In this document: in pieces, positions 1 through 60,938 of the stretch
Numbering within the stretch: the first letter of the stretch is position 1
How the letters are laid out: each line of letters starts with the position of its first letter
Source: a virus
Lineage: Duplodnaviria; Caudoviricetes
IMG/VR virus record: IMGVR_UViG_3300042891_001512
Span: 1-64,000 of that record
Reading direction: 5' to 3' (one strand)
DNA: 64,000 nt
Program-made: the position numbers and the translations under genes
The notes under the pieces: generated by a model
The model's database searches: none
The model's input: only the letters and a program-made list of their open reading frames with translations
Told to the model about the DNA's origin: nothing

Positions 1-190
1 ATTCAGGAAAGTCTAGGTCATCATTGTTGTAGTGTCTGTACACTTCTTGAAATGCTTTACTGGCAGACAATGGGTTATTGCGTAAGCGACGCTTGATCTT
101 TTCTTGCTCAATGCCGCGCACAATGCCGATTACAAAGCCAGTGATAGCACTAAATGCCATGTAGCCCCAGAATAGTTTCTTATAGTTCAT
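1..190 (-). CDS. hypothetical membrane protein, partial (runs off window)
   Basis: ATG at 190 with AAGGA RBS; MNYKKLFWGYMAFSAITGFVIGIVRG has a hydrophobic N-terminus; frame open to the window edge. Confidence 0.55.
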   Translation of the reverse strand, partial: MNYKKLFWGYMAFSAITGFVIGIVRGIEQEKIKRRLRNNPLSASKAFQEVYRHYNNDDLDFPE

Positions 191-224
191 GATTATTTTC
201 CTTTTAAGGGTAGTTTAGACATAG

Positions 225-680
225 TTAAACCTTAGATCTGCACATTTCGATAAAAGCTTTCTGAAAATCATATTCAGAGTCATTATAAGGAATAGTGTAG
301 TTATTTAAAGTTAAATCTGTTTTACCTGATTGAAAATAAGTGTTATATGCAACCAGGAAATCAAAGATAGCGTTTACATAAGCAAACTGATAATCGGATA
401 GAAGTGGTACGTCAAGAGCACGAACATAAGAACGAACTGCTTCCATAGCATTTGTTTCGTCTTGCCATTCTTTGGTAGTAGGAACAGATCCTCTGTTTAA
501 AGAAATTTGTTCTTGAATATCAATTAAACGATTTAATTCGCGAACAGAATTGAGGTTACAATCTGTTCCATAATTGATGGTAGTTACAGTAGTTTCTACT
601 GCAACTGGCTTGCTGTTACCGCAAGAAGCTACAACCATAACGAGTATAGATGTAGCTAGAATAGTTTTTAAGATTTTCAT
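225..680 (-). CDS. putative lipoprotein
   Basis: Signal peptide with lipobox-like VVASC (MKILKTILATSILVMVVASCG). Confidence 0.65.
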   Translation of the reverse strand: MKILKTILATSILVMVVASCGNSKPVAVETTVTTINYGTDCNLNSVRELNRLIDIQEQISLNRGSVPTTKEWQDETNAMEAVRSYVRALDVPLLSDYQFAYVNAIFDFLVAYNTYFQSGKTDLTLNNYTIPYNDSEYDFQKAFIEMCRSKV

Positions 681-875
681 GATTTATCTTTCTTGAATAG
701 TTTCATTTTCTTGATGTATATTGCTAAGCCGGCAATAACAAATGCTATTGCTGTAGTGATGGTTGTAAGCTTTTTCACAAGGTTCCTTTCATTGTTTTAT
801 TAAATATTTTGCGAAGCCACACCATCATGGTGATACTGCCTGCTGCAAATGATATTGAGATTAGTCCGAATGTTT

Positions 876-1181
876 TCATGCTGCTTGATCCTTTTCGCTA
901 ATATAAGCATTGATCATGTTGCCATACATTTCTACAACAGCCTTGCCCTTTTCAAAGGTTTCAATTACTGGCATAGTGTATGTAAGATGGTCTGATGAGT
1001 CTGGTGAAAAACCACTAGGGCTTTGAACACTGTATTCAATTTGATTAGTGCCATCTGACAATTGCTCAACGCGCATTGAACTAATCATGCCTTTAGGAAG
1101 TGAACGACCATCACGGTTGTAAACTCTAAAGCCATAATACTTTACATAATCGGTTGTTTCTTCAAATTTTTCTACTTGCAT
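876..1181 (-). CDS. hypothetical protein
   Basis: 101-aa ORF with GAAAGGT RBS, same orientation as neighbours. Confidence 0.65.
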   Translation of the reverse strand: MQVEKFEETTDYVKYYGFRVYNRDGRSLPKGMISSMRVEQLSDGTNQIEYSVQSPSGFSPDSSDHLTYTMPVIETFEKGKAVVEMYGNMINAYISEKDQAA

Positions 1182-1349
1182 GGTTCTACCTTTCAGTGTA
1201 GTGTTAGGGTTTTATCTTGTAGGGTATGGAAATCTTCTAAGCACCAATCTTCAGTGGTGATGATAGGACTTCCTTTGGATGTAATGGATACTGTTACTGT
1301 GAGTTTGGTCTTGTGACATATGGCACACAAACCTTTGCGTGGTATGTCA

Positions 1350-1592
1350 TCAATCATTTGTATTTTCATGGGTTATTCCCTCCCGACTTATTCCTTTAGA
1401 ATAATACTCAATGTCTATGTCCCTGTGACATACGCCACAATAAATTCCACGACAATCTATTTCCTCAAAGTAGAACTGGTGGTTCATACAACGATGTAAT
1501 TTCCATGGGTTGCCGGCAACATATCGCACAATCCCGCGAACGAAGACTGCTGATATGAGGATTAGAATGCCTAAAGGTAAGATGAGATCCAT
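1350..1592 (-). CDS. small membrane protein with Cys/His motif
   Basis: N-terminal hydrophobic helix, HxCxxH and CxxC; coupled to upstream ORF (TAATG overlap). Confidence 0.55.
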   Translation of the reverse strand: MDLILPLGILILISAVFVRGIVRYVAGNPWKLHRCMNHQFYFEEIDCRGIYCGVCHRDIDIEYYSKGISREGITHENTND

Positions 1593-1870
1593 TAGTAGTC
1601 TCCATGTTTAGCTGCATCGAGAGATTCGAGGCAAGGGTTGCTTCCACAGCATTGGCAAGGCTTGAGATTATCAAGTGCATCCTGTAAAGAAATAACTTTA
1701 TCGGACAACTGCTCAATAAGTATTTGGTGTGATTCACAGATCTCAAGCAATGAGTCTGTACGACGGTTCATTTCCTTGACCGTTTCTAGCAAAGTCATCT
1801 GGCTAATCTTTATTAGACCTTCTTTAGTCGCAATAAGATTAACATCAAATGAGTCATCTTGAATTCCCAT
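1592..1870 (-). CDS. hypothetical coiled-coil protein with C-terminal Cys cluster
   Basis: 92-aa ORF, AAGGA RBS, CQCCGSNPC motif. Confidence 0.55.
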   Translation of the reverse strand: MGIQDDSFDVNLIATKEGLIKISQMTLLETVKEMNRRTDSLLEICESHQILIEQLSDKVISLQDALDNLKPCQCCGSNPCLESLDAAKHGDY

Positions 1871-2123
1871 AACAATCCTTTCAATTGATTATTTACACAG
1901 ATTTCTTGCTTTTTTAGCTGCTTCTTGAGCTGCTGTCCATGTTGGAAACCAAGATAGACATTCTTGACAAGTAGCGTCATGATGTTCTACGCTTTCAAAT
2001 TCGCAAGGATCAGGTGCTGCTGTTCCGCAAATGTAAGGTTCACTCATGCTATTCTCCTTTTCTCCGACTTATTCCTAAGGATTAGAATACTAGGAACAAA
2101 AAAAAGATTAGGGAACTAGTTGC

Positions 2124-2180
2124 AAAAAAAATGTCAGCCAAGCCGATGTATGCGGGGGACATACACCGACCTGACTGACA
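2124..2180 (-). terminator. rho-independent terminator after putative SSB gene
   Basis: Minus strand TGTCAGTCAGGTCGGTGTATG-loop-CATACATCGGCTTGGCTGACA followed by a T run. Confidence 0.75.
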
Positions 2181-2201
2181 AAACGGGCTAAAACTAAAGT
2201 G

Positions 2202-2729
2202 TCAGAAAGGCACTTCAGCAGTAGCAGTGGATGTAACAACTGGCGCAACCAAAGCAGCACCACGGAAGTCAACGAGGATATCGAGGTCATCGATATTGCC
2301 ACGCTGAGGGGAAACAGCCAACTCGGCAATGTCATAAGTCAAAGCCGTGTCGTCCTTCAACCAAATGGTCTGGTTGGTCACAGTGTATGTGCCACCAAAC
2401 TTGTTGGTCAATTCCTTCGTCCGCAGTTCGCCCGCAGTAAAGCACTCGCTGTCGTTGAGTACAGCAAGACGGCAACTTGGGTGATACAGTTCACCGTTAC
2501 TGTCAGTGGCTGTGCCATCAATGAATGCCTGAGCAATCGCGACGACTTTGCTTGCACGAGCAGCGTCCATCCAGATAGTGTAGTTCACACCAATCTGAAA
2601 GCCTGCTTCCTCACCGAACTTGGCCTGTAGTGTTACAGGAATTTCGGTCTTGTTGAACGAGCCTGAGCCGTCCTTCAAGTTATGTGTGTGCGTTGTAGGT
2701 GCACCAACCTTAGTGATGAGAAGAGTCAT
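2202..2729 (-). CDS. putative single-stranded DNA-binding protein
   Basis: Beta-rich ~175 aa, low-complexity linker and C-terminal ...EVPF resembling SSB acidic-PF tails; GGAAAGGGG RBS before ATG 2729. Confidence 0.4.
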   Translation of the reverse strand: MTLLITKVGAPTTHTHNLKDGSGSFNKTEIPVTLQAKFGEEAGFQIGVNYTIWMDAARASKVVAIAQAFIDGTATDSNGELYHPSCRLAVLNDSECFTAGELRTKELTNKFGGTYTVTNQTIWLKDDTALTYDIAELAVSPQRGNIDDLDILVDFRGAALVAPVVTSTATAEVPF

Positions 2730-2958
2730 TAGACCCAACCCCTTTCCGTGACCGTAGTCACATAAACTACCAGCAACCCGATGTTACCAGTAGGCGAAGT
2801 CCCGAAAGACCCCGACTTATTCAACGGCCAGACCCGTGATGGGGGCCAGACCGCGGAAAATCTCTTGAACCGTGTTTAGAATCAAATTGGAACCAAGTCT
2901 TGGGGACTAGGCAGAGCACGGTGCTTGTTTAGAATATAACATTAAGATAATACTTATC

Positions 2959-5634
2959 CTAGAGGCCCAGATCCTTGAGCCCCTGGATAAGCAGATCCAT
3001 CATTGATTTCTGCCCACGCTTGCCGGCTTGGAACATTACACGGTCAACTAGACCATAACGCAGATGAGCATTGGCCTTGATGTATTCGCCACGACCTTCG
3101 TGATACACCCTCTCGTAGCTCATCTTTGGATCAGTCATCCAGCGATAGATAGCAACAGCCATCTTGGTTGGTGACTTGGACGTTTCAATCTCATCGACCA
3201 TCATCTTGACAATGGCTTCCAACTCGGTTGAAGAATACACAGCGTTCCATGCCTTGAAGTAGCGGCTTGACCACTTTGTCTCTTCTGCCTTAGCTTCTGC
3301 CTTACGCTCGTCAAATGCACGCAACATGTGGATATACTTGGTGTTGAATGCTTCACAGACAGCCTGTGTTTGATCTGACAGTGTAGGGATTAACTGTTGC
3401 AGTTGAGGGATTAACTCAGAACGCATGCGGAGATAGATGGTGTTCTTCTTCTCTTCGCGTACATCCTTGAGTACCTTGATGTAGTGCTCACTGAGCTCTG
3501 CCAATGGTCCATCATAGACATTACCTTCCAACTCATGCTTGAACCGATCAGGGATACGACTCATCATGTAGCTGTCAATCTTGATATCTTGTTTGATGAT
3601 ATCATCGATCATTGATTGCCACATGGTTGATACGCTGCCACTGATAAAGCGGAATGCCTCAATGTTTGCTGTTTGAGAGCTTGCATCGATAATGTCATTA
3701 CCACTAGCTGGCATGTAGGTTGGATAGCTTGGACCAAACACATTTGCATGTACCATCATGAAGTTCGAGAATGAACCAAATCCAGGGTTGTGCAATTGTG
3801 CATCAATCATGTGCTTGGCGTTATCTCGTGTGAATCCCCTCTTGCTGTACTGCGTTGAGTTCAGGATTTCATTGAGCTTAGTGTCAACAATGGTGTCTTT
3901 AAGCAGTGTGCTCATTGGCAGTGTTGCTTTGCTAAGGTCAATTACCTGTACCATCTCTTCGTTTACACGCATAAATGGCATTGTCTCTGCATCGTAACGC
4001 TCGATTGAATAACCACCAGGTCCGTTTGGTGAACGAATGATAACAACCATGTCGATTGCTTCTTCTGGTGTGGTTGGTACTTCCAGGTCAGCTGGGATAA
4101 CAAATCCATCCCTGAATTCCTGGTGTGACAACCCATAGAGAGTTACAACTGGCGAAGAGCTCCACAATTTAATGCGGATGAACCTAGCCATGTCACCATC
4201 TTGGTCCCATGTGTCGTGAAGGTCTGCTGTCTCAACAAAGCGGTTGCCTGGGATGATTGCACCGAAGCGCTTGTCATACCATACAACATTTGACTTTGAC
4301 TCTGGCAGCTCTTGTCCACCCATGATTTGCAATGCCTCATGAGTAATGACAGGAGCCATGAATGCATTAAACATTGGCAACCAGATGTTACCACGCTTAA
4401 CTGATGCACTCATGCGATTAGCAAGCTGACCGTACGCCATGTGGATGAAGTTTGAGCTGTCATACAATGAGAACCCAGCCTTTTGCCACTTAATGTAGTT
4501 TGCTTGCCACTCTTGGAGTTCATTGTCTTCGTTGACTACTCCATGATCCTCTTGATCATCCATGCTAACAGTCATCCATTCTGGCATATTGCCCACTTCG
4601 ATTTCTTTCTTGAAGTCAGACAAAAGACTGTCACATGTAGCTGTGAGGTGTTCAGTGGTGTACAACCATGGATTGTTGATCATTGATTGATCGTCAATCG
4701 TTACTTCGTACAGAGTTGGCATCGGCCACGCTACAAATGTATAATTACCATCTGTGGTGGACAATTCCTTCTTTTCCATTGATTCGTGGTACACAATGTC
4801 TGCTGGGATTTCATCATCCTCAACAATGTGCAACAAGCCCTTAAGCATGAAGCCTTCCATTTTCATACGGAACAACCAAGTACGATTGTCACCGTGCACA
4901 CCACCAATCATTCTGCCTCTTACTTCCGCATCTTTGATAGGGAAACAAGCTTTGATGAATGCTGATTTGCGCATAAAGGCTGGTCCATCAAACATCACCT
5001 CATCTGCTGGATCATACTTCAACCCATAGCTAGAGTAGTATTGCTCAAGCCATTCGTTTGTATAAGCCTTAGTGGTGACTGACTTCATTGACCTTGAACG
5101 ATATACCTGAGTAAACCGTGTGATTTCTTGAAGTCGCTTTGATGTCTTCTTCATGTCGATTACGCTGACACCAAGATCATCCAATGACCAGTTGTTGTCT
5201 TCACGCATCTTCAAGAAGAAAGCATGTGTTGCATTAGCCCAGGCAAAGTTGGATTCTTCGATGAGTGCATCTAAGTCTCCGTTGTCCTTGCTGATCCACT
5301 GCTTCAGCTCATTGATTGTAATCATCTTAAGCTTGAACTTCTTACCGCGGCTGTTAAGCTTGTGCTCCAAGAGTCCATACTTCCAAGTAGGGTTGTTGTT
5401 GATTGGCATAAGCCAGATATGGTGGTTGTATGCACCATTCTCACCAGTGCGAACTGTTGTCCCCATCTTGAATGGTTTGCCCGTCTTCTTTACGGTTGAA
5501 TAGGCCAATGACTCACGCTCTGTTGGGTCGTTGGTGATGGTGTGGAAGAAGTCATGCATGAATGCAATCACTTCTGCTCCTTTCTGTTGAGGCTCTGTCG
5601 TTAAACGATTGAGCTTTTGTTGTGGTGTTTCCAT
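2959..5634 (-). CDS. putative single-subunit double-psi-beta-barrel RNA polymerase (YonO/QDE-1-like)
   Basis: Motifs FDGP, FRMKMEGFMLKG, LHDTWDQDGD (DxDGD) and IIRSP; ~890 aa; GGGAGG RBS before ATG 5634. Confidence 0.6.
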   Translation of the reverse strand: METPQQKLNRLTTEPQQKGAEVIAFMHDFFHTITNDPTERESLAYSTVKKTGKPFKMGTTVRTGENGAYNHHIWLMPINNNPTWKYGLLEHKLNSRGKKFKLKMITINELKQWISKDNGDLDALIEESNFAWANATHAFFLKMREDNNWSLDDLGVSVIDMKKTSKRLQEITRFTQVYRSRSMKSVTTKAYTNEWLEQYYSSYGLKYDPADEVMFDGPAFMRKSAFIKACFPIKDAEVRGRMIGGVHGDNRTWLFRMKMEGFMLKGLLHIVEDDEIPADIVYHESMEKKELSTTDGNYTFVAWPMPTLYEVTIDDQSMINNPWLYTTEHLTATCDSLLSDFKKEIEVGNMPEWMTVSMDDQEDHGVVNEDNELQEWQANYIKWQKAGFSLYDSSNFIHMAYGQLANRMSASVKRGNIWLPMFNAFMAPVITHEALQIMGGQELPESKSNVVWYDKRFGAIIPGNRFVETADLHDTWDQDGDMARFIRIKLWSSSPVVTLYGLSHQEFRDGFVIPADLEVPTTPEEAIDMVVIIRSPNGPGGYSIERYDAETMPFMRVNEEMVQVIDLSKATLPMSTLLKDTIVDTKLNEILNSTQYSKRGFTRDNAKHMIDAQLHNPGFGSFSNFMMVHANVFGPSYPTYMPASGNDIIDASSQTANIEAFRFISGSVSTMWQSMIDDIIKQDIKIDSYMMSRIPDRFKHELEGNVYDGPLAELSEHYIKVLKDVREEKKNTIYLRMRSELIPQLQQLIPTLSDQTQAVCEAFNTKYIHMLRAFDERKAEAKAEETKWSSRYFKAWNAVYSSTELEAIVKMMVDEIETSKSPTKMAVAIYRWMTDPKMSYERVYHEGRGEYIKANAHLRYGLVDRVMFQAGKRGQKSMMDLLIQGLKDLGL

Positions 5635-5681
5635 GGGTTTTACCTCCCCATTTGTTGTTGGTTGATTATTTGATTGATTTA

Positions 5682-6482
5682 CTACAGACACGCGATGCAT
5701 CCGTTCATGAATACCTCAGTGCCTGATCCGCCCATTTCTTCTGGCTGATACTTAGTGCCACATACATGACATTCAACTTTGCCAAATGGCTCATCCTCAT
5801 CGATAACTTGGACAGGCTTAACGGGCTTAGGCTTGTATGCCTTGAGCTTGTCAATGGCTGCTGATGCCCACTTGGTGGTGAGTACATTTGTTCCATCGAT
5901 ATGTGCTTTCATCTTTGTTGTCAAAGACTCCTGCTCATCAATTGTCATGTTTGATTTAACTTCCAAGAACAAAGACCGGATAAACTTTATCTGCTTATCT
6001 GTCATTGGCTTGTTCTTTGGTGCAAGTTGAGCCAGTTGCTCTCCACACAGTTCACAATAAACTGCCTTGTAGTCTGTGTTTACTTGTCCTGGAATTAATT
6101 TCCAATCCCAGACTTGGTGTTTGCATTGCTTCATCGGATTTACCTCCCGAATTGTTGTTGGTTGATTTGACATGGCTTCTTTCCTTTCGTTGTTTGTTGT
6201 TTCTTGATTGACATTTTCTTGCGGTACTAACTCAATTGCGGTAGACCCCTGTAGACCGTGCAAAGGACGCTCTGGGTAGTAACCAAGTTGTGGGACTGGA
6301 TCCCAGTTAATAGATACGGTATAACCTCCCTTTGGTATCTTCTGGACATAGTTCCATTTTCCACGTGAATTTTGCCTATTAACAGATACTCCATTGGGTT
6401 CAAACCTAACCCACTTTACAGTGCCTGTTATATGAGGCTTTGCCTTGGAACGTACCTTGTCCCCTGGATTGAATGGCTTCAT
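5682..6482 (-). CDS. hypothetical protein (SH3-like N-terminus, zinc-finger motifs), likely with internal starts at 6173 and 6134
   Basis: FNPGDKVRSK beta-barrel-like start; CELCG, CHVCG and CIAC motifs; internal RBS+ATG sites. Confidence 0.55.
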   Translation of the reverse strand: MKPFNPGDKVRSKAKPHITGTVKWVRFEPNGVSVNRQNSRGKWNYVQKIPKGGYTVSINWDPVPQLGYYPERPLHGLQGSTAIELVPQENVNQETTNNERKEAMSNQPTTIREVNPMKQCKHQVWDWKLIPGQVNTDYKAVYCELCGEQLAQLAPKNKPMTDKQIKFIRSLFLEVKSNMTIDEQESLTTKMKAHIDGTNVLTTKWASAAIDKLKAYKPKPVKPVQVIDEDEPFGKVECHVCGTKYQPEEMGGSGTEVFMNGCIACL

Positions 6483-6484
6483 GA

Positions 6485-6736
6485 TTACTTTCCTCCCTCG
6501 TTGAATAGTGATAGTTGGTTGTCTTTCATTGTTTGCTTTGCTTGAGATACTAGTTTCTTCTTCTCGACCCTAGTTTCACTGCCTGCTTTGCATTCGGTGC
6601 ACCATATGCGCCTTACTGGGTAAAACGTAATCCAAGCATTAGCTATGTGAACATAGTGTTTGCCTAGAGCACACCACACCTCTTTCTCTGAATCCCGAGC
6701 AAAACGGGAATAGTTCTTCCAATGTAACCTTGCCAT
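6485..6736 (-). CDS. small Cys/His zinc-binding protein
   Basis: WCALGKH...WCTEC, ends QLSLF (resembles a beta-clamp-binding motif); coupled ORFs. Confidence 0.55.
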   Translation of the reverse strand: MARLHWKNYSRFARDSEKEVWCALGKHYVHIANAWITFYPVRRIWCTECKAGSETRVEKKKLVSQAKQTMKDNQLSLFNEGGK

Positions 6737-6963
6737 TACTCCCCCTTTATGTTTTCTTCTAGGAATTGTTTTGCATTTTTCTCACACCAACCACACGAAC
6801 CACATTTCTGAATGTGCGTGTTTAATTTCCAGATTATGAGATGCTTTTCTAACTGTTTCTGCTGGCGAGAACTTAAAAGATATCCGCCATTGTTCTTTTC
6901 GCAGAAATCAAAGTATGCTTGCCTGTCTAAATCAAGCACACCTAATTTGAATATATCACTCAT
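6736..6963 (-). CDS. hypothetical protein
   Basis: 75 aa, HxxxCxxCxxC; AAGGAG RBS; coupled. Confidence 0.55.
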   Translation of the reverse strand: MSDIFKLGVLDLDRQAYFDFCEKNNGGYLLSSRQQKQLEKHLIIWKLNTHIQKCGSCGWCEKNAKQFLEENIKGE

Positions 6964-7490
6964 TACTTTTCTCCTTGGTTGTTGTTTGTTACTCGTAATT
7001 CAATTTCCATGTCTCGGCATGTCAATTCAAGGTTTGCGTTGAGGTTAAACCGATCAATTATGGCTTCAATGAATTCCCTTGAAAATCCATACAAAGTATT
7101 ATTAACGTTAACCTCGGTGTATTGAATACCGCTATTGGCAGTGTGGACTGATGGCCTTCCACTCCATGGTCCGGTAAGAACCCTGTGTGATCCATCTTGC
7201 ATTGTCAATTCAAATGACTGGCCTCCATAACCACGACCAATTTTATTGGATCCATCATGGATAAAGCCATTAACAATTGCACCATCATCTGAAATGCCAA
7301 CAAATGAATATGATGATTTTGTTTCATCACACACATTTTCGTATTGGGTATACGTCAATGCTCCACTTGTTAGCCGATTGTCATTTGATTGGATTTTAAC
7401 CTCATGCCATTCTCCCATGTGATGTAACACAATTTCAGCTTTTGAGATTAAATCCAGCCTTGACTGGAATTTATTATTGTTTTCTAACAT
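6963..7490 (-). CDS. hypothetical phage protein
   Basis: 175 aa with GYGG...LTGPWS motif; AAGGAG RBS. Confidence 0.65.
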   Translation of the reverse strand: MLENNNKFQSRLDLISKAEIVLHHMGEWHEVKIQSNDNRLTSGALTYTQYENVCDETKSSYSFVGISDDGAIVNGFIHDGSNKIGRGYGGQSFELTMQDGSHRVLTGPWSGRPSVHTANSGIQYTEVNVNNTLYGFSREFIEAIIDRFNLNANLELTCRDMEIELRVTNNNQGEK

Positions 7491-7550
7491 TACTTGTCTC
7501 CTTTGTTGTTTTTTGGCTTACTGTTTTTCTGTTGATTGCAAAAATCTATC

Positions 7551-7754
7551 TTAGAGCATTCGGCCTTTCGTCAAGACCATAATTGCATTCCAGTAGATGT
7601 CTGCATCTTTTTCTTGCTTGTTGGCCTCTGCATCGTTCAATGCAAAAACCAATTCATTGATGAGTGCTTTCTTGCTTAGTTTTTCTTGTAGTATTTTTGC
7701 TACAATTTCTTCGGCAGTGAACACTCTTGGTTTTGGTACATTTTCTTCAGACAT
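7551..7754 (-). CDS. hypothetical protein
   Basis: 67 aa; AAGGAG RBS. Confidence 0.55.
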   Translation of the reverse strand: MSEENVPKPRVFTAEEIVAKILQEKLSKKALINELVFALNDAEANKQEKDADIYWNAIMVLTKGRML

Positions 7755-7790
7755 TCGTTTCTCCTTTTGGATTGTTGTTTGTTGACATGT

Positions 7791-8108
7791 TTACTTTCCT
7801 CCGTTTTCTGTTGGTAGTTTAATTGATTCAGCAATGCGCAAATAACGAGTCTTCAATTCTGGATTGAGTTCTACGATATCGTTAACCATTACTGTGGTGC
7901 TATTGCCGTAGCAATTGGCCTTGGCTATACTCCAAAGAGTATCTCCTTCGTATGCAACAACTGAACTTACGTGACAGTATGTTGGCTTGTTGGTTAGCTT
8001 GCCCATTGTAACTAAAGCCGCAATTGCGACAATAAGAACAACGAACATTTTTGTTGCTTTACTCACTGCTTTCTCCTTTGTGTTGATTGATGTTTTCATT
8101 TGAGCCAA
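7791..8108 (-). CDS. LysM domain membrane-anchored protein
   Basis: TM helix then VAYEGDTLWSIAK...IVELNPEL...LRIAESIKLP, matching the LysM consensus; true start may be downstream. Confidence 0.8.
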   Translation of the reverse strand: MAQMKTSINTKEKAVSKATKMFVVLIVAIAALVTMGKLTNKPTYCHVSSVVAYEGDTLWSIAKANCYGNSTTVMVNDIVELNPELKTRYLRIAESIKLPTENGGK

Positions 8109-8368
8109 TCTCCTTCTGTGTTGGTGTTTTCATTTGATGTGTTACCGTATTCCCATACACGCTTACCTGCATAGCCGAGACCCGCAAGCAAGATGATTGC
8201 CACACCTGTAGCATTAAGCATGCTGAGGATAAAGCCCAATACTTCAAATACAGCACTGAACAGTATGCCTATAGCACCGAATGCTACAGATACTAGTGGG
8301 GTGAATAGAACAAGCGTTATGCCCACAGCCACTTTGTGGTTGAGGATCCAATTCTTGATCGTATACAT
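8096..8368 (-). CDS. small membrane protein
   Basis: Two long hydrophobic segments; AGAAGGT RBS. Confidence 0.65.
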   Translation of the reverse strand: MYTIKNWILNHKVAVGITLVLFTPLVSVAFGAIGILFSAVFEVLGFILSMLNATGVAIILLAGLGYAGKRVWEYGNTSNENTNTEGDWLK

Positions 8369-8478
8369 GATTATTTACCTTCTTTCGTTAGGTATTACTG
8401 CTCACACGATGTGAACATCAAACACCACGAAACCTAAATCCCATGGTGTTTACAACTCACATCAGAGTTGATTATTTA

Positions 8479-8977
8479 CTTGTTGTCCGGGTTTTGCTTA
8501 CTTACTTAACTTGTTAATTAACTCAGAAAAAGAATTAAGATTTTCCTTAATTTCTTTCCAAGTATATTTATAGCTACTAAATTGACCATGATACAGAGAA
8601 TCTTTTTCATATATCATCTCCATGATGGCATTGTTATCCCAATCCCACAAAAAGTATGGACGGTCATACTCCCACTTTTTGCAGAACTTAATACGAAAAT
8701 CCATGTCGTATGCTCGAGATTCTAATACTCGAATAAGCTGATTATGAAGACTGGATTCTAACTCTTTGCGCTGACGATCCCAGAATTTAGCAAATGGGGT
8801 TAAAACTTCAACCCTTTCTGCATTATTGAAATTCTTTGGTATTAACGCAAAGACTTCTTCTGCTGACAATTTTATTGACAGGTTTGTTTTTGATTCCCAC
8901 CTGTCTACTCTAGTTTCTTTTATCATGTTTTTCCCCGTTGTTTGTTTAAGTTGATTTTCTTAAACCCGGACAACAAG
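8479..8977. repeat. 16-bp perfect inverted repeat flanking ORF 8498-8926
   Basis: CTTGTTGTCCGGGTTT at ~8479-8494 and AAACCCGGACAACAAG at ~8962-8977. Confidence 0.8.
8498..8926 (-). CDS. hypothetical protein (AT-rich insert)
   Basis: 142-aa ORF, visibly more AT-rich than its neighbours. Confidence 0.6.
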   Translation of the reverse strand: MIKETRVDRWESKTNLSIKLSAEEVFALIPKNFNNAERVEVLTPFAKFWDRQRKELESSLHNQLIRVLESRAYDMDFRIKFCKKWEYDRPYFLWDWDNNAIMEMIYEKDSLYHGQFSSYKYTWKEIKENLNSFSELINKLSK

Positions 8978-9058
8978 AAACTTAATTCAATGTTTTACTT
9001 GCCAGAATAATCGCAAGGTTCATGTTATTTAACGTCCACCAATGGACAATGTACTTGA

Positions 9059-9412
9059 TTAGCAGTTAGTGCCGCACAAGGCTTTAATGCCTGTAGGAGA
9101 AGCCTTTACTGACTCTTCCCATAGGTTTACTGAATGAAGGGTCCAGCGGTAGCCCCACATGCGTGCACGTGAATCCCATGAACGCTCACCTAGAAGGCGA
9201 ACAATCTTCCCATTGTACATCTTGTTCATGTACTCTGGGATGTTATGGGTGTGTGTGAATGTATGGCTATCAGATGCACCGCACCCATCAAGCTGTATCC
9301 ACACTGCCTGGCCATCATGGCACACGTACTTGCCAATAACCTCGGCATACTGTGCATGTGTGTTGTACGCCTGAGCCATCTGCTCACACGTGGTTAGTGT
9401 TACTGGTGACAT
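9059..9412 (-). CDS. hypothetical protein
   Basis: 117 aa; GGGAGG RBS. Confidence 0.55.
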   Translation of the reverse strand: MSPVTLTTCEQMAQAYNTHAQYAEVIGKYVCHDGQAVWIQLDGCGASDSHTFTHTHNIPEYMNKMYNGKIVRLLGERSWDSRARMWGYRWTLHSVNLWEESVKASPTGIKALCGTNC

Positions 9413-9672
9413 GGTTACTTTCCTCCCTTATTGGTGATTGATGTTTCTACTAGGTATGCCCTTACATAGGCACATGTCTTTGCATTTACTGGTATGTTGT
9501 GCTTTACACAATGCAGTAGGTACTTACGGTACGTACGTGCATATGATGTCCTGTTATGCTCCATGATTATCTCCTTTGTATGAGTTGAATAAAGCCCAAT
9601 GTTTTACATACCATGGCTATCGTATGGTTCATGTTGTTTAGTGTCCACCAATGGACAGTACTACCACCTGTA

Positions 9673-9903
9673 TTACAGGCTAATAATAGGACGTACCTTA
9701 TTATTAAACTGCATGAAGTATTCCTTACCTGTGCCACCCTCTGTGCAGAAGAAAAGGTTACCTTCTGTCCTGTGATTAATGATGTTTATATCTCTTAGTG
9801 CTACATCACCATTCTCTTTAAAGAAAGATACAGTTGTACTCCAATTATATTGAGTAACAACTATCCTTCCATTCTTATTACCTGTGTATGTTATTGATGA
9901 CAT
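9673..9903 (-). CDS. hypothetical protein, first gene of leftward block
   Basis: 76 aa ORF. Confidence 0.45.
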   Translation of the reverse strand: MSSITYTGNKNGRIVVTQYNWSTTVSFFKENGDVALRDINIINHRTEGNLFFCTEGGTGKEYFMQFNNKVRPIISL

Positions 9904-10225
9904 GATTGTCTACTTTCTTGTTAGTTAAGACCCCATACCCGGGTGGGCACGTTAAAAGTCTTAAGGGTCTACATATACCCACTAGTGGTGGCCCATATTT
10001 TTTCCATATTTTTAGCCTATTAGTTTTTTTTATATATGTTTTTACATCAAAAATTTTTCCTTTATTTTTATACCTATATAGGAAATCGCCCGCAAAAAAA
10101 GTTTGGAATATATTGCTATAGAGGTTGTCAAAGGTAAACATGCTTTGCTATTATCTTTGTTGTCATATAGATATCATGTACAAGAATCATATAACCATCA
10201 ATGCCTAGTACAAAAGGATAAGAAA

Positions 10226-10420
10226 ATGAGTAAGAACAAGAATACGTTGACAAAAGAATCCCAGGATGATATTCAACTGGATATGTTCGAGGATTATGAG
10301 GGGTTGGACGTGGAAGATGATATCTTCTATCAATTTAACTCTAAGACATATTATGGAGCTAAGTCAGCTTATGTTGATGTTGAAGATTATGATTTCGACA
10401 ACTATGGTTACAACGACTAA
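10226..10420 (+). CDS. small acidic protein
   Basis: AAGGA RBS before ATG 10226; Asp/Tyr-rich; followed by a terminator. Confidence 0.55.
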   Translation: MSKNKNTLTKESQDDIQLDMFEDYEGLDVEDDIFYQFNSKTYYGAKSAYVDVEDYDFDNYGYND

Positions 10421-10440
10421 TATTTAACCTATATAAAAAG

Positions 10441-10473
10441 AAAAACCCCCTGGATATACCGGGGGGTTTTTTT
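10441..10473. terminator. bidirectional rho-independent terminator
   Basis: AAAAACCCCCTGG-atata-CCGGGGGGTTTTTTT between convergent genes. Confidence 0.85.
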
Positions 10474-10493
10474 ATATCCTTATATAAGTATTA

Positions 10494-10814
10494 TTAAAGA
10501 TCATCTAAGTCGTTAGGAAACTCTCTAGGATCGATCACCCAGGACTCAATACCATCCTCTTCGGATAATCCTTCTATAATAGAAAATTTATCCCTACCGG
10601 TAAGCTCGGAAATATCATCGATCATTTCCCATACCTCAATACTAAAAACATTAAATACCAAGTTACCGTTACCATCAGGATGGAAGGTGACTACGCTTTC
10701 GGTCTCCAAGTCTTCGTCGTCAAGTAAGAAGACCTGTTCTTCTAGCTCTTCCCCGTTTTCCCTATTATAGATAATAAGTTCAAACAATTTTTTAAAAAAG
10801 TCCATAAACATCAA
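10494..10814 (-). CDS. hypothetical acidic protein
   Basis: 106-aa ORF, D/E-rich. Confidence 0.6.
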   Translation of the reverse strand: MMFMDFFKKLFELIIYNRENGEELEEQVFLLDDEDLETESVVTFHPDGNGNLVFNVFSIEVWEMIDDISELTGRDKFSIIEGLSEEDGIESWVIDPREFPNDLDDL

Positions 10815-10897
10815 TTCGCTAGATGATACTCTTATAGTAATCTGTTAAAAAATAAAAAAATAATTTTCGCCGCGAAATGCGCCGGGAAGGCAATGAT

Positions 10898-11065
10898 CTA
10901 ATCTTTAACTTCTTTTATGTAGTTCTCTTCCCACGAATCACCACAATCCCTACACTTAACAGAAAAACGTTCTACACGTTTATCTTTAGAACCAAGTTTA
11001 GTAGCTGAGTGATTCGGTGGGAATGAACAATCGGAGCAGGCGGTTGATTCAAACCCCTGGCTCAT
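10898..11065 (-). CDS. small zinc-ribbon protein
   Basis: 55 aa, CSDC...CRDCG; overlaps recA stop (ATGA). Confidence 0.55.
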   Translation of the reverse strand: MSQGFESTACSDCSFPPNHSATKLGSKDKRVERFSVKCRDCGDSWEENYIKEVKD

Positions 11066-12033
11066 ATGTTATTCTTTTCCTTAATTAACGCTATAAGTTT
11101 TTCGTCTAGCTTTAGCTTCTCTACAGCATTATCTCTACCTTGAGCAAAGTTTTCGCCATCAAGATAAACCCAAGCACCTTTTTGGGTAAAGATACCTTGA
11201 CCTAAAGCAAGATCGAACAAACAACCGAATTGATCTACACCCTTACCATAAAGAATATCAAATTCTGTAATCTTTAATGGTGGGGCCATCTTATTCTTAA
11301 TAATCTTAGCTTTAACTTTAATACCTATAGCTTCGCCAGACTTGTCCTTAAGATCTTCCTTCTTACGCAAATCTATACGAACCGAAGCAGCATACTTAAG
11401 AGCCATACCGCCAGGAGTAGTTTCCGGGTTACCGAACATAATACCAATTTTATTGCGCAACTGGTTTATAAACAATAGGAGCGTTTTTGTCTCGGATGCG
11501 GCCGAAACTAGCTTTCGCATCGCTTTGGCCATTAGACGAGCTTGTAGGCCCATCTGAGCCGATTCCATCTCACCTTCCAGCTCTGCTTTCGGAATAAGTG
11601 AAGCAACAGAGTCAATCACAACAACTCCCACTTCGCCAGATCGAACAAGGCGGTCAACTATCTCCAAAGCTTGCTCGCCGTAATCTGGCTGAGAAAAAAT
11701 TAACTCATCCAAGTCTACGCCTAGTGCGGTCATGTAGATTGGGTCCAAAGCATGCTCAGCATCAATGTAAGCACACTTCAGACCCATCTTCTGAGCTTCT
11801 GTAATAACAGTCAAAGCAATAGTAGATTTACCAGAAGATTCTGGTCCATATATTTCTACTATTCTTCCTCTAGGTAAACCACCAATACCTAGAATCTTGT
11901 CTAGCGTGGGAGCGCCAGTCGGAACAGAAGGCCATTTTTCTACATTGGTAGACCCGAGAGTAATCACGGATCCGGCACCAAACTGACGCTCTAATTGAGC
12001 GATAATAACATCTAAAGCTTTTGAATCATCCAT
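11062..12033 (-). CDS. recA: RecA recombinase
   Basis: GPESSGKST Walker A, IDAEHALD, VIDSVA, FINQLR, GNPETTPGG ALKY. Confidence 0.98.
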   Translation of the reverse strand: MDDSKALDVIIAQLERQFGAGSVITLGSTNVEKWPSVPTGAPTLDKILGIGGLPRGRIVEIYGPESSGKSTIALTVITEAQKMGLKCAYIDAEHALDPIYMTALGVDLDELIFSQPDYGEQALEIVDRLVRSGEVGVVVIDSVASLIPKAELEGEMESAQMGLQARLMAKAMRKLVSAASETKTLLLFINQLRNKIGIMFGNPETTPGGMALKYAASVRIDLRKKEDLKDKSGEAIGIKVKAKIIKNKMAPPLKITEFDILYGKGVDQFGCLFDLALGQGIFTQKGAWVYLDGENFAQGRDNAVEKLKLDEKLIALIKEKNNI

Positions 12034-12039
12034 AAAGAT

Positions 12040-12048
12040 ATTCTATCA
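12040..12048 (-). promoter_or_regulatory. extended -10 promoter, leaderless recA
   Basis: TGaTAGAAT 6 nt upstream of the recA ATG with no RBS. Confidence 0.6.
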
Positions 12049-12225
12049 CACTTTCAATGCTAAAGCTTCTTGAACTTCCTTCATCTTCTCTACAACCTTG
12101 GCTTCAACAAATCTAAGTTCAGCTTGGGTTTGTGGATCTTGACCAAGCATTGATTGTCTTACTTGTTCGCGCAATTTAGTTAACTGCTTAAGATAAGCAA
12201 ATGATGGCTTTATTGTTTTACTCAT
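12046..12225 (-). CDS. small hypothetical protein
   Basis: 59 aa, AGGAG RBS, helical. Confidence 0.5.
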   Translation of the reverse strand: MSKTIKPSFAYLKQLTKLREQVRQSMLGQDPQTQAELRFVEAKVVEKMKEVQEALALKV

Positions 12226-12594
12226 TGTGAGGTACTCCTAATCTTGATGGTATAATTACTAGAAGAAATTATATACAGATGGGATACAAAATGCAACGCA
12301 GAATAGAATTAGATGAGAATTTTTACAGAGCAGTGTTCTTGCTTAAGAATAGATTTAACAACGTAAATGACCTCGTAAAGTATTGGGCATATGCAGGACC
12401 TTGTGATGAAGGTCAACCGCAAATAGAAAACATAAAAAAAATTGGCAAGTGACTTGAAGTAAAGAAAGAAAAATAGTAGACTGGGATTTTACCCCCTACC
12501 CCCTACCCCCTTACTATATACATATATGTTATAAATAATATGTATATATATAATAATATATTATATTAATATATAGAATCTTAATTTTTAAAAC

Positions 12595-14025
12595 ATGATC
12601 GGAGCACAAATGAAGATATATCAGATATACGTTCCGGATCTTAACGCATACGTTAAATACAAAGTATTAGAACCAGAAGAAATAGAGTCATTCGTTTCGC
12701 AGCTAAATGCTAAGACTGAAAAAGAACGAAGAAGAAAAGTTCTTCAATATGTAATCTTTAACTTAAAAACAGAAATATCTCAAGCATTAGGATTAATGTC
12801 CAGACCCGATGCAGAAAGATGCGTAGAAGCATTGTATACGGGATGTGTAATGTTGAACCCTGGTTTAGACATAGATTACTGGGTTGCTATTGCCTATTCA
12901 TTTGGTGCCGAAGAATATGATCTATCTACAGATAGAAACTTTGAAGAACTAAAAAATATACTTAGTAAAGTAAAAGACAAAAAAGGTTCTAAAGGACAAG
13001 ATAAAGCAGTTCAAGTTGCCAAGAAGATAAGTAAACAAAAGTTCCTTGGATTGGAACATCATCTTAAGAATAATATTATTGGTCAAGATGAGGCAGTTGA
13101 ATCCATCTGCGAAGCATTAATTAGATCTCAGGCTGGTTTAAATGATTCCAACAGACCATTGGGGGTCTTTATGTTTGCCGGCGCTTCGGGTGTAGGCAAG
13201 ACACATTTAGCAAGAACTTTGCACGAATATTTGTTTACATTAGATTATCCGATGGTAAGAATAGATTGCGGTGAATTCCAACAAAAACATGAGAATCAAA
13301 AGCTAATAGGTTCACCCCCAGGTTATGTTGGACACGATGAAGGTGGCCAATTAGTTAATCAGATTCAAAAGAATCCTAACTCAGTAGTTTTGATAGATGA
13401 AGTAGAAAAAGCTCACCCAGATATTTGGAATACATTCTTGAGAGTATTTGACGAAGGAATTATTACTGATGGCAAAGGTGAAAAAGTAGACTTTAGAAAT
13501 ACCATAATAATATTAACAACTAACCTTGGTAACGAAAAAACGGTAGATCATATGATCGGTACCGGGACAGGTTTTAATAAGAATGTAAACTACCAAGGAT
13601 CAACATCTGCAATTCCATTGAAGTCTATGGTTGAAAGAAATACTATGGATGCAGCAAGAAAATACTTTAGACCTGAATTATTAAATAGAATTGATAAAGT
13701 TGTTGTGTTTAATCATTTAACTAGAGCTGACTGCGAAAGAATAGCTGAATTAGAAATGCGAATAATTTCTGACAAATTAAACAAAAAAGGTTTTAATATT
13801 GAATATAATCAAAATGTTATCAATGGTTTGATTGATAGAGGAATTGATACTGTCAAGGGGGCAAGAGGATTGGCTCAAGTTCGTAGAGATAAGATAGAAA
13901 CTTCATTAGCCAAGACGATAGTTAACACGTCCGTTCCCAAGGGAACAACATTTACTTTAGACTATTTGGATGACAACTTTCACTTTACGGTTATTAAACC
14001 AGCTAAAAAAGTAAAAACCACATAA
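12595..14025 (+). CDS. ClpA/ClpB-like AAA+ ATPase (single D2-type module)
   Basis: IIGQDEAV, GASGVGKT, RIDCGEF, LIGSPPGYVG, VLIDEVEKAH, FRPELLNRID, GARGL. Confidence 0.92.
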   Translation: MIGAQMKIYQIYVPDLNAYVKYKVLEPEEIESFVSQLNAKTEKERRRKVLQYVIFNLKTEISQALGLMSRPDAERCVEALYTGCVMLNPGLDIDYWVAIAYSFGAEEYDLSTDRNFEELKNILSKVKDKKGSKGQDKAVQVAKKISKQKFLGLEHHLKNNIIGQDEAVESICEALIRSQAGLNDSNRPLGVFMFAGASGVGKTHLARTLHEYLFTLDYPMVRIDCGEFQQKHENQKLIGSPPGYVGHDEGGQLVNQIQKNPNSVVLIDEVEKAHPDIWNTFLRVFDEGIITDGKGEKVDFRNTIIILTTNLGNEKTVDHMIGTGTGFNKNVNYQGSTSAIPLKSMVERNTMDAARKYFRPELLNRIDKVVVFNHLTRADCERIAELEMRIISDKLNKKGFNIEYNQNVINGLIDRGIDTVKGARGLAQVRRDKIETSLAKTIVNTSVPKGTTFTLDYLDDNFHFTVIKPAKKVKTT

Positions 14026-31166: not shown

Positions 31167-31751
31167 GTGCTTAAGGAAATAGGTCCTGTTGGTTCAGGAA
31201 TATATTTCGGTCAATTATTTAGTAAAAGACTTGCTTCTGCTTTTATGGAACAGTTAGATAAACTTGAATCAAATATTCCATCAGAAACAGATAAAAACAA
31301 ATTCAAAACTTATTCGGTAAATGAATCAGCTACTGTTAGCGGATTTTTATTAACGTCTGTCCTTGGGTCTATATATTCCCGACTGACAAATCAGTACTCA
31401 TTAATGACAGGAATAAAACTTGTTATCCCATCATTCCCAAATCCAGGTTTCGTAATCAAAACCCAAATGACTGGACAAATACACGGTGTGCATAGTGACG
31501 GCAATAACTTAGATTATGAGGGGAGTAGAGTTTTGCATACTTCAGCTATATGCATGAATGATAACTATGAGGGCGGTCATACGCAATTTTATCTTAGTGG
31601 AACAATGGAAAAACCAAATATCGATATAGATATAAAACTAAAAGCGGGACAAGCACTAATATTTAATTCAAACTTAAATTATCATGGCATTACAGAAGTT
31701 ACTTCTGGGTCTAGGATTACTTTACTCCAACTTTGGAGAGAGTGGTTATGA
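31167..31751 (+). CDS. 2OG-Fe(II) oxygenase (prolyl-4-hydroxylase-like)
   Basis: HSD...NDNYEGG...HGITEVTSGSR. Confidence 0.85.
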   Translation: MLKEIGPVGSGIYFGQLFSKRLASAFMEQLDKLESNIPSETDKNKFKTYSVNESATVSGFLLTSVLGSIYSRLTNQYSLMTGIKLVIPSFPNPGFVIKTQMTGQIHGVHSDGNNLDYEGSRVLHTSAICMNDNYEGGHTQFYLSGTMEKPNIDIDIKLKAGQALIFNSNLNYHGITEVTSGSRITLLQLWREWL

Positions 31752-35573: not shown

Positions 35574-35629
35574 ATATTTACGTTTTGTTTATTACTATTG
35601 ATACTAGTTAATAATTTTGGAGAATAATT

Positions 35630-53812: not shown

Positions 53813-54490
53813 ATGATTATTATAGATGATTTCATAAAAGATAAAAATTTATTAGAAGAAATAGAGTTAACTCCAAATTTCTTTCCAGAATCAATGGGCG
53901 ACGAAGAAAAAATAGCTACAGTTCTAAATGGTTATCACGATGGACAATGTGATTGTTTTGCGCCGTATATGTTTTGGGATGGTTGGTTAAAATCTGAGGC
54001 AGATACTCCAAGAAAAAGATTAATTAAAAAAATATGGGAGAACAATCTTCCATTCCCAGTAGAAGACGTTTGCGGTTTTGAGTATTGGACTAGAACTTTT
54101 AAGCCTGGACAATTTCTTGATACTCACGTAGATGAAGATACATTTCTTTACGCAGATAAAAAAATATTTAGAGGACCAAGAATAGGTTGTGTATATTATC
54201 CGCACACCAATGATGTGGTTGGTGGATTTTTAGAGATGCATCCTACAGCTATTTCAGAAGATACAGCTAACGCTTTAGAGAAAGAAAATATAGATCATTT
54301 AATAGTTCCAGTAGAGTTAAGAGAGAGAATATCTTGTAAGCCAAATAGGCTAATAATTTTTGACGCTGGACATGTCATACATAACACGACTCCACCGATT
54401 AAAGGTGTTAGAAGAGTTGTGGTGGTAAATGTGTGGCATAAAGATAACCCACCATCAGCTTTAAAAACTGGTGAATTTTATTATGAATGA
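53813..54490 (+). CDS. 2OG-Fe(II) oxygenase-like protein
   Basis: GFEYW, THVDED, GGFLE, PNRLIIFDAG..IH...R. Confidence 0.8.
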   Translation: MIIIDDFIKDKNLLEEIELTPNFFPESMGDEEKIATVLNGYHDGQCDCFAPYMFWDGWLKSEADTPRKRLIKKIWENNLPFPVEDVCGFEYWTRTFKPGQFLDTHVDEDTFLYADKKIFRGPRIGCVYYPHTNDVVGGFLEMHPTAISEDTANALEKENIDHLIVPVELRERISCKPNRLIIFDAGHVIHNTTPPIKGVRRVVVVNVWHKDNPPSALKTGEFYYE

Positions 54491-55079
54491 AAAAATTGAT
54501 TTATTTACATTAAGTATATGTAAAACTTTTTTACAAAACATTGACAATGATAAGTTGTTGAAGGAAATAGAAAAATTTGACACAACACCAAATGTAAAAG
54601 ATCCATCACCGGCTCATACTTTTTACGAAGATAAGCTTTATCCTTTTGGTCAACCAGAATCAATGAAGTTAATTGATGAAATAACTAATTCTGTCAATCA
54701 TTTTACTAACTTAGATATGGTTATGGATTCTATTTGGACTATAACTCTAGAAAAAGGCCAGTCTGTTTTAAGCCACACGCACAAGGTAAACACTCAGCTT
54801 TATCCAGAAGAATATTATTCTGTTTCATACTATGTAAGCGCACCAGAAGATAGCGCAGATTTAATATTTGTTACCACACACTGTAATACAATAGAGAGAG
54901 CAACTTCAGTTAAAACAGAGACAGGAATGTTGTTGATATTTAACTCTTACATTCCTCATATGACAAATAGGCAATATTCCGAAGAAAAAAGAGTTGTCGT
55001 AAGTGCAAACTTTAGTCCTAAAACACCGAACACTAACCCTACCGCAGATTGGTCGGAATATAGGGTGCCAAATAGGTAA
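54483..55079 (+). CDS. putative 2OG-Fe(II) oxygenase (TIGR02466-like)
   Basis: W.....G.SV.SHTH...SVSYYV...GMLLIFNSYIPH...RVVVSANF. Confidence 0.8.
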   Translation: MNEKIDLFTLSICKTFLQNIDNDKLLKEIEKFDTTPNVKDPSPAHTFYEDKLYPFGQPESMKLIDEITNSVNHFTNLDMVMDSIWTITLEKGQSVLSHTHKVNTQLYPEEYYSVSYYVSAPEDSADLIFVTTHCNTIERATSVKTETGMLLIFNSYIPHMTNRQYSEEKRVVVSANFSPKTPNTNPTADWSEYRVPNR

Positions 55080-59557: not shown

Positions 59558-59563
59558 AAGTAT

Positions 59564-60693: not shown

Positions 60694-60726
60694 TGTGGTA
60701 TAATTAAAAAGACAAAGGAGACAAGT

Positions 60727-60936: not shown

Positions 60937-60938
60937 TT

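Follow-up and report, generated by a model that had tools for sequence, protein, structure and literature searches.

Two-barrel polymerases are the oldest known transcription enzymes, and the single-chain two-barrel forms carried by phages are proposed kin of the eukaryotic RNA interference (RNAi) polymerases. The described systems closest to the locus studied here are the Neurospora and plant RNAi polymerases QDE-1 and RDR2, YonO of phage SPbeta, gp99 of Bacillus phage 0305phi8-36, and gp64 and gp96 of Thermus phage P23-45. We analyzed a 64,000-nucleotide stretch of viral DNA (positions 1 to 64,000 of IMG/VR record IMGVR_UViG_3300042891_001512, referred to as the window), in which an initial annotation had proposed that a minus-strand gene at 2959..5634 encodes a divergent single-subunit RNA polymerase with an unusual order of its catalytic motifs. 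Our analysis indicates that the product of this gene is very probably a single-chain RNA polymerase with the catalytic core of cellular RNA polymerases, and that two hallmark motifs of this core occur in reversed order throughout its family. The best explanation as a whole, which we regard as reasonably probable, is that this is a polymerase of the QDE-1/RDR/YonO/gp64 class in which the usual active site has been rewired, and that it serves as a phage transcriptase.

Of the two P23-45 enzymes, gp64 is the non-virion polymerase and gp96 the virion RNA polymerase, fused to the tape measure protein, as described in the available part of PMC10770324. The portion of Iyer et al. 2021 (PMC7824862) available to us calls gp99 of 0305phi8-36 YonO-like.

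Fold of the encoded protein and comparison with described enzymes

Translation of the minus strand gives one 913-amino-acid open reading frame (ORF) that spans 2959..5700 of the window, and whose protein we refer to as P0001. The full-length AlphaFold model of P0001, built on a 30-sequence alignment, had a predicted local distance difference test score (pLDDT) of 84.9 and a predicted template modelling score (pTM) of 0.83. Searching the PDB with this model using Foldseek gave 24 matches at E <= 0.001, with QDE-1 (7y7q_B, E 2.6e-7) and maize RDR2 (7w82, E 2.8e-7) at the top, together with Arabidopsis RDR2, and with gp64-type structures (gp64/gp62) from P23-45-type Thermus phages also present (8f72, E 2e-4; 8f5m, E 2.4e-4); gp96 and crAss-like gp66 were matched weakly (E 0.05-0.09). 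VIA, a structure comparison independent of Foldseek, gave Z >= 8 for only 4 of 48,161 chains, all of them two-barrel polymerases: RDR2 (7w84, Z 11.7, 607 residues aligned, root-mean-square deviation 6.1), QDE-1 (7y7p, Z 10.7, 604 aligned), gp62 (8f5m, Z 10.1, 389 aligned) and gp96 (8h2n, Z 8.1, 305 aligned). In BFVD, the closest matches were two uncharacterized proteins of uncultured phages (E 1e-36 and 5e-34), followed by P23-45 gp64 (E 7e-4), and 23 of the 30 nearest ESM Atlas clusters carry PF05183, with the nearest named RNA-dependent RNA polymerase. These fold matches bear out the initial annotation of a divergent single-subunit two-barrel polymerase, and the single-chain two-barrel identity holds at the level of the predicted fold.

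The best structural matches, to QDE-1 and RDR2 (7y7q, 7y7p, 2j7n, 7w82 and 7w84), cover residues 40..913 of the model, with 604-607 residues aligned by VIA. Like these RNAi polymerases, P0001 is a single chain with two barrels, a DxDGD loop (in the window's clade) and a C-terminal helical part. Unlike them, it is encoded by a phage gene from lake metagenomes, shares only 10-13% identity with them, does not match PF05183, carries its Arg-x-Pro (RxP) motif after the Asp loop, and contains ~70-80 extra residues between the Asp loop and an N-x3-G-x3-N helix. P0001 has the single-chain phage two-barrel form of YonO and gp99, and resembles them in an R..KG strand and an [IV]D[FA]xK/S-T motif, but no sequence similarity to either could be detected by tblastn, hhalign or BLASTP; in both of these proteins [RK]SP is located ~45 residues before DxDGD, and gp99 matches the Pfam RdRP family whereas P0001 does not. 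Since the terminase and major capsid protein of 0305phi8-36 are related to those of this phage (27.6% and 37.8% identity, respectively), gp99 may be the positional counterpart of this gene in a related virus lineage. P0001 resembles gp64 and gp96 in the fold matches given above (8f72, 8f5m and 8h2n), and P23-45 also resembles 3 of the 5 relatives described below in having two very divergent paralogous two-barrel polymerases per phage. It differs from gp64, a protein of 616 amino acids with NRRP before ADYDGD, in showing no sequence similarity to it, and from gp96 in the absence of a tape measure fusion in either copy here. Judged by its model, P0001 would be an enzyme of the YonO, gp64 and QDE-1 type that lacks the PF05183 match, the sequence likeness to YonO and the RxP-before-DxDxD order.

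Family and conservation of the motifs

Homologues of P0001 form 63 clusters in a collection of 5.8 billion proteins, and a 30-sequence profile recovered 306 representatives at E <= 0.001 among 1.84 billion, 109 of them at E <= 1e-30. All 306 family clusters (50% identity) are metagenomic and unnamed, and the two UniProt members encountered are both labelled "Uncharacterized protein". A first pattern scan of prokaryote genomes found no relatives, and a second found two, both on ~5-kb contigs of metagenome-assembled genomes, which are probably binned phage DNA.

The motifs listed in the initial annotation all lie in the single minus-strand ORF and at the places it gave: DTWDQDGD falls on the same bases (4192-4215) in our translation, and the RSP motif is downstream of the Asp loop, 53 residues after it in the protein. 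The elements of the gene are as follows.

2959..5634, minus strand: polymerase gene; the ORF is open to the ATG at 5700 (913 amino acids), with the probable start at ATG 5634-5632 (891 amino acids)
5134..5151, minus strand: basic motif KKTSKR, residues 184-189, with K185, K188 and R189 invariant
4981..4992, minus strand: FDGP, residues 237-240, with D238 and G239 invariant
4837..4872, minus strand: first-barrel basic motif FRMKMEGFMLKG, residues 277-288, with R278, K287 and G288 invariant
4192..4218, minus strand: putative metal-binding loop HDTWDQDGD, residues 495-503, with D499, D501 and D503 invariant
4000..4056, minus strand: Arg-x-Pro hairpin MVVIIRSPNGPGGYSIE, residues 549-567, after the Asp loop, with R556 and P558 invariant
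3763..3789, minus strand: N638-x3-G642-x3-N646 helix motif, with Q635, N638, G642 and N646 invariant; candidate counterpart of the bridge helix
3685..3702, minus strand: GNDIID, residues 667-672, almost invariant; YonO and gp99 have [IV]DFAKT at the same point of their motif order
2959..3375, minus strand: C-terminal part with long helices and a small beta unit, residues 776-913; the QDE-1/RDR2 structural alignments reach residue 913

Invariant in 30 homologues are D499, D501, D503, R556, P558, N559, R278, K287, G288, D238 and G239; in a more diverse set of 79, no exception was seen for D499, D501, the third Asp, R556 or P558. The initial annotation had named a lack of conserved Asp residues among homologues as refuting; these residues are conserved in both sets (n = 30 and n = 79). 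The loop itself reads DxDGD in 30 of the 79 (the window's clade) and [WH]DxDD in the other 49. By motif likeness, the strand with R278, K287 and G288 resembles the R..KG strands of YonO (VRLPWVKG), gp99 (IRFGFTKG) and gp64 (FRAWKG), and the N638-x3-G642-x3-N646 motif resembles NIGEYSNN of YonO; the RDR enzymes presumably hold a counterpart of this helix as well.

The start of the gene is probably the ATG at 5634, the second in frame, because GGGGAGG is located at 5649-5643, 8 nt upstream of it, because the first in-frame ATG (5700) lies within the last part of the ORF upstream, and because the 99%-identical database cluster P0002 is 891 amino acids long.

Some family members carry additional domains. 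Among 24 long or distant members scanned, five have an N-terminal PIF1-type helicase (P0111, P0113, P0168, P0169 and P0208), three a fused NADAR domain (P0066, P0168 and P0172; P0012 also has one, on record) and two an N-terminal DUF4326 (P0131 and P0149). The 95%-identical P0003 (1117 amino acids) and the homologue in a complete relative, G001, have ~200 extra N-terminal residues with a weak 2-oxoglutarate (2OG)-oxygenase-like match (E 0.0026, below the cut-off). Upstream of the polymerase gene, at 5682-6482 of the window (minus strand), there is a 266-amino-acid ORF with two Cys-x2-Cys pairs and sub-threshold zinc-ribbon matches only; this separate zinc-ribbon-like ORF stands where the 95%- and 70%-identical relatives have the fused N-terminal domain.

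Order of the Arg-x-Pro and Asp motifs

The initial annotation held that RxP normally precedes DxDxD, and this is so in the three reference sequences that we read directly, with FNRRP ~45 residues before ADYDGD in P23-45 gp64, ILRSPHL ~45 residues before FDNDGD in SPbeta YonO, and FRSPLIH ~45 residues before ADTDGD in 0305phi8-36 gp99. A published list of these polymerases was "filtered by presence of [RK]xPx{20,100}DxDxD" (Chaban et al. 2024, Supplementary Data 4, in the available part of PMC10770324). YonO, gp64 and gp99 all match this pattern, and P0001 does not. Using a reverse pattern, in which the Asp loop is followed after 15-90 residues by [RK]xPN, we found the reverse order in 165 of 187 full-length sequences (family and profile matches). 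The canonical pattern occurs in 11 of the 187; nine of these carry it at another place in a chain in which the reverse order is present too, and the other two (P0183 and P0198) have R-T-P directly after the Asp loop, which was missed since the reverse pattern required P-N. The unusual motif order is therefore family-wide, and unlike that of YonO, gp64 and gp99. Because 165 of 187 sequences are reversed, and because R556 and P558 are invariant in 79 of 79, the motif reversal is real, old and family-defining.

The literature that we searched contains no description of this family or of a reversed motif order, and the family may still be among the 23 published two-barrel families of PMC10770324; the strings RSPNGPG, WDQDGD, SPNGPGE and WDLDD occur in 0 of the 10 supplementary files of that paper that were searched.

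Topology of the second barrel

In the models, the second barrel consists of six strands and two helices. The predicted elements are a strand (446-453), a helix (454-460), two strands (473-476 and 480-483), a helix (485-490), the Asp loop, a strand (504-513), a variable insert, a strand (549-555), the RSPNGPG turn and a last strand (564-567), i.e., E H E E H [Asp loop] E E E for strands (E) and helices (H), where the canonical order is E E H E E E H E. IIRSPNG occupies residues 554-560, with R556 encoded by bases 4033-4035, and strands 549-555 and 564-567 flank the RSPNGPG turn in both the full-length model and the model of the second barrel alone. These models do not bear out the circular permutation raised in the initial annotation, as no cyclic shift of the canonical strand-strand-helix-strand repeat gives the predicted element order. 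Residues 473-513 look like an ordinary second half, with two strands, a helix, the Asp loop and a last strand, and the canonical place of RxP, between helix 454-460 and strand 473, holds no strand in the models.

When folded alone, residues 437-600 gave a compact domain (pLDDT 92.1). With this domain, VIA returned 14 chains at Z >= 2. Large subunits of RNA polymerases and phage two-barrel polymerases account for 10 of them; the remaining four are the N-domains of UFD1 and Sec18p, which we take to be double-psi barrels, and two unrelated chains. Similarities of this size are too weak to settle the topology. Covariation was analyzed by mean-field direct coupling analysis (DCA) of 115 sequences (effective number 82), at which depth only the strongest pairs are trusted. 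The two strongest pairs join helix residue 455 with helix residue 485, and Asp-loop residue 496 with turn residue 563 (second of all pairs); weaker strand-strand signals, not trusted at this depth, can be arranged as a closed six-strand ring. Asp at residue 496 goes with Gly at 563, and Gly at 496 with Glu at 563. This swap suggests that an acidic side chain is retained at 496 or 563, and would therefore place the RSP turn beside the metal loop.

We prefer the reading in which the strand that bears the Arg has changed its place in the chain, with R556 acting as the canonical Arg does. In such an enzyme, D499, D501 and D503 would bind the catalytic Mg ions, K287 and R278 would stabilize phosphates, and R556 would replace the Arg that characterized relatives take from the [RK]xP strand before the Asp loop, so that the usual active site would be built with a different chain connectivity.

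The alternative that survives best, which we consider possible but unlikely, is that the barrel has the ordinary order, that the RSPNGPG hairpin has been added to the barrel behind its last strand, and that the canonical strand (446-453, AFMAPVIT) has lost its Arg and Pro; the protein would still be a two-barrel RNA polymerase. We take the "..ILSPANGEP.." hairpin after NADFDGD in bacterial beta' to be comparable to the RSPNGPG hairpin, and the succession of strand 504-513, a short helix (527-531) and a hairpin with an S-P-x-G turn matches the order that we presume for beta'. A non-significant BLAST segment (15 bits) also pairs FNAFMAPVITH with FAAFRSPLIHK of gp99, with the Asp loops in register and one 7-residue gap, and the downstream motifs are colinear with those of YonO and gp99. 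However, P450 is not conserved (the family consensus is NAFxATVxT), the helix directly after strand 446-453 fits the first half of a barrel and not an Arg-x-Pro strand, and the weak VIA alignments begin at the first barrel strand of gp62 (chain residue 239) and of Pol II Rpb1 (chain residue 350), not at their RxP strands. Only three strands lie ahead of the Asp loop, where five are expected; R556 and P558 vary no more than the catalytic Asp residues do, and the turn covaries with the Asp loop.

Phage genome and role of the enzyme

The window makes up the initial 64 kb of a viral contig of 111 kb, whose terminase and major capsid protein are nearest to those of the Bacillus phage 0305phi8-36 / Moorella MTATph1 group (~180-230-kb phages). 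DNA of the gene is present in lake-water metagenomes, with 20 runs containing at least 63% of the sampled words, 10 of which are possible source runs. The polymerase gene is located within a leftward block (12,033 to 1) that starts with RecA, and a rightward block starts with a ClpX-like ATPase and continues to the terminase, portal, capsid and tail genes. A terminator-like feature follows the gene:

2767..2793, minus strand: terminator-like hairpin, ~170 nt downstream of the stop codon, from a consensus scan only

A second, strong terminator-like hairpin, with a 20-pair stem followed by a T run, is present at 2133-2179 (minus strand) after the ORF at 2202-2738, and is a possible end point of the transcription unit to which the polymerase gene belongs.

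For the wider genome context, we used five large related contigs, three of them rated complete, with complete relatives of ~210 kb. None of the five contains DNA_pol_A or DNA_pol_B, and DNA_pol3_alpha is present in four, including all three complete ones. The complete 216-kb relative G001 has a 70%-identical polymerase homologue, encoded by ORF 58348-61707, as well as genes for Pol III alpha, a primase (phrog_16345), a DnaB-like helicase, SSB, RNase H and RecA. No Pfam match to a T7-type or beta/beta' RNA polymerase was found in the 104 G001 ORFs scanned. Since G001 thus has the means for its replication, and since the two-barrel enzyme is its sole recognizable phage RNA polymerase, phage transcriptase is the likeliest role. 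In 3 of the 5 related contigs, the family profile also identified another copy, a very distant paralog located ~10 kb downstream:

G001, ORF 71924-74557 (L025:14924-17557): second paralog
G002, ~160.8-162.2 kb: second paralog
G005, ~129-130.7 kb: second paralog

The G001 paralog is a protein of 877 amino acids with HDEDDY (loop DEDD) and then ICRSPN (BLASTP to P0001, E 1e-7); on the window's contig, this position would fall past the contig end.

From this genome context, the most likely function is that of the phage's own DNA-dependent RNA polymerase. Its gene belongs to the leftward block of non-structural genes in a lake phage of the jumbo type, and the enzyme would be made early and would transcribe a later gene class. 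It is improbable, in our view, that it instead serves to replicate or repair DNA, whether as an RNA polymerase of the primase kind or as a DNA polymerase like PolD. The PIF1-type helicase, NADAR and DUF4326 fusions, the weak 2OG-oxygenase-like N-terminal domain of close relatives and the position of the gene in the block of RecA would all suit such a role, and PolD is a two-barrel fold able to make DNA, as the available part of PMC7708050 describes. Against it, G001 already has Pol III alpha, a primase, a DnaB-like helicase, SSB and RNase H, and P0001 itself has no helicase or repair domain; no PolD chain is among the Foldseek and VIA matches listed, which shows little either way. We think it slightly more improbable still that the enzyme is an RNA-dependent RNA polymerase copying phage or host transcripts, e.g., for double-stranded or antisense RNA, as its top fold matches (QDE-1 and RDR2, which are cellular RNA-dependent RNA polymerases) and the names of the nearest ESM Atlas clusters would allow, since template choice is not set by fold similarity, the characterized phage members are DNA-dependent (YonO in the available part of PMC5467207, gp64 and gp96 in that of PMC10770324), and QDE-1 accepts DNA templates too (available part of PMC9508822).

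A promoter-like word upstream of structural genes

The initial annotation suggested that the polymerase could transcribe late genes from ATTACTAT. The 8-mer itself is not significantly enriched overall, with 9 found where 4.6 are expected and 8 of 100 shuffles reaching 9; its core, TTACTAT, is strongly concentrated upstream of genes, and its use by the polymerase was not borne out. TTACTAT is the top-enriched 7-mer in the upstream intergenic regions of both this phage and G001, above the ribosome-binding site, and occurs in 7 of 39 upstream regions here and in 13 of 113 in G001. On this contig, 9 of 29 sites fall in the intergenic 6.6%, and in G001, 22 of 46 fall in the intergenic 8.8%, with three sites counted twice as the contig ends repeat. 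Only 1 of the 22 intergenic G001 sites is in the ~58-kb block that holds both polymerase genes. The sites with flanking letters (A/G)TTACTAT(A/T) are:

35591..35598, plus strand: intergenic, promoter-like site
10834, minus strand: further site
12511, 14033, 31882, 36766, 41750 and 47137, plus strand: further sites
71098 of the contig: further site

The sites in the window are 20-139 nt before the next start codon, apart from that at 41750, which is 494 nt from the next called ORF; most TTACTAT sites are 20-50 nt ahead of a start codon, and several are orthologous between the two phages. This distribution fits a middle or late promoter, and the conserved word TTACTAT(A/T), 20-50 nt ahead of many structural genes, is the leading candidate for a promoter, with a putative link to the polymerase.

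A CCCCCTA-type triple repeat (CCCCCTACCCCCTACCCCC) stands directly before a TTACTATATACATATAT site at 12486-12517 of the window, between the divergent RecA and ClpX-like genes, and the arrangement is identical letter for letter in G001 at ~47,170-47,200. No terminator-promoter cassette array is evident in positions 1-12,700 of the window, where the repeats are ribosome-binding sites and start codons.

Weighing the reading and its significance

Several observations weigh against a rewired two-barrel polymerase that acts as the phage's transcriptase. At the sequence level, P0001 has no Pfam or PHROG match, and PF05183 (RdRP) does not match it even at E <= 1, in a scan in which the positive control gp99 scored E 1.2e-18 (67.6 bits); YonO and gp64, both proven polymerases, also fail the PF05183 gathering threshold, so this model is narrow. 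PDB sequence searches (phmmer and profile) gave nothing relevant, tblastn of P0001 and two distant relatives against 50,697 phage records gave no match, hhalign of family profiles against gp64, gp99 and YonO gave probabilities below 1%, and BLASTP of P0001 against YonO and gp99 gave E >= 5. At the structural level, residues 437-600 alone match canonical barrels weakly (VIA Z <= 2.7) and gave no Foldseek match at E <= 0.001, and the best full-length matches are enzymes that also copy RNA. In terms of role, G001 has two WhiB-like genes and a weak sigma-like match, and therefore uses the host RNA polymerase too; TACTAT resembles the host -10 hexamer and is equally attributable to host RNA polymerase; the PIF1 fusions of distant family members would suit replication as well; and the window's contig is rated ~53% complete. 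The polymerase activity of family members is a prediction from sequence and model.

What the family may represent can be put forward only tentatively, at a little under even confidence: the first natural rewiring of the universal two-barrel catalytic barrel, with the RxP strand beyond the Asp loop and mostly DxDD, in an active transcriptase of widespread lake jumbo phages that often have two paralogs, missed by Pfam and by the motif filter, and with fused PIF1, NADAR or 2OG-oxygenase-like template-handling domains in some members. If so, the fused domains would couple polymerization to unwinding, or to the removal of DNA lesions or defence marks. In this large family, unnamed in Pfam and PHROGs, the predicted fold is kept while two hallmark motifs have exchanged their order and most members have an altered metal loop, which would therefore show the tolerance of the active-site scaffold. 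Motif-based surveys under-count such enzymes. The locus also offers a compact (~890 amino acids) candidate polymerase with a promoter candidate, directly testable in vitro.

Other observations on the contigs

Paralogs of 2OG-Fe(II) oxygenases are numerous, at 31167-31751, 49717-51140, 54471-55079 and 59929-60693 of the window and at 63027-66746 of the contig. Near them, among the structural genes, are glutathione-peroxidase-like, AurF-like, TauD-like, radical SAM/SPASM, methyltransferase and glycosyltransferase genes. Four giant ORFs are present outside the window, at 76150-82719, 82719-87626, 88465-99552 and 105736-110487 of the contig (2189, 1635, 3695 and 1583 amino acids, respectively), near a baseplate J-like gene and with no Pfam match at E <= 1e-4. 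Two 61-nt copies (80% identical) are located in intergenic positions of the leftward block, at 8988-9048 and 9597-9657 of the window, each with the palindrome TGTCCATTGGTGGACA (minus strand). The ends of G001, a record classed as linear, repeat at a constant offset of 207,377 bases (91, 4108 and 4440 versus 207468, 211485 and 211817), and its unique genome is therefore nearer 207 kb.

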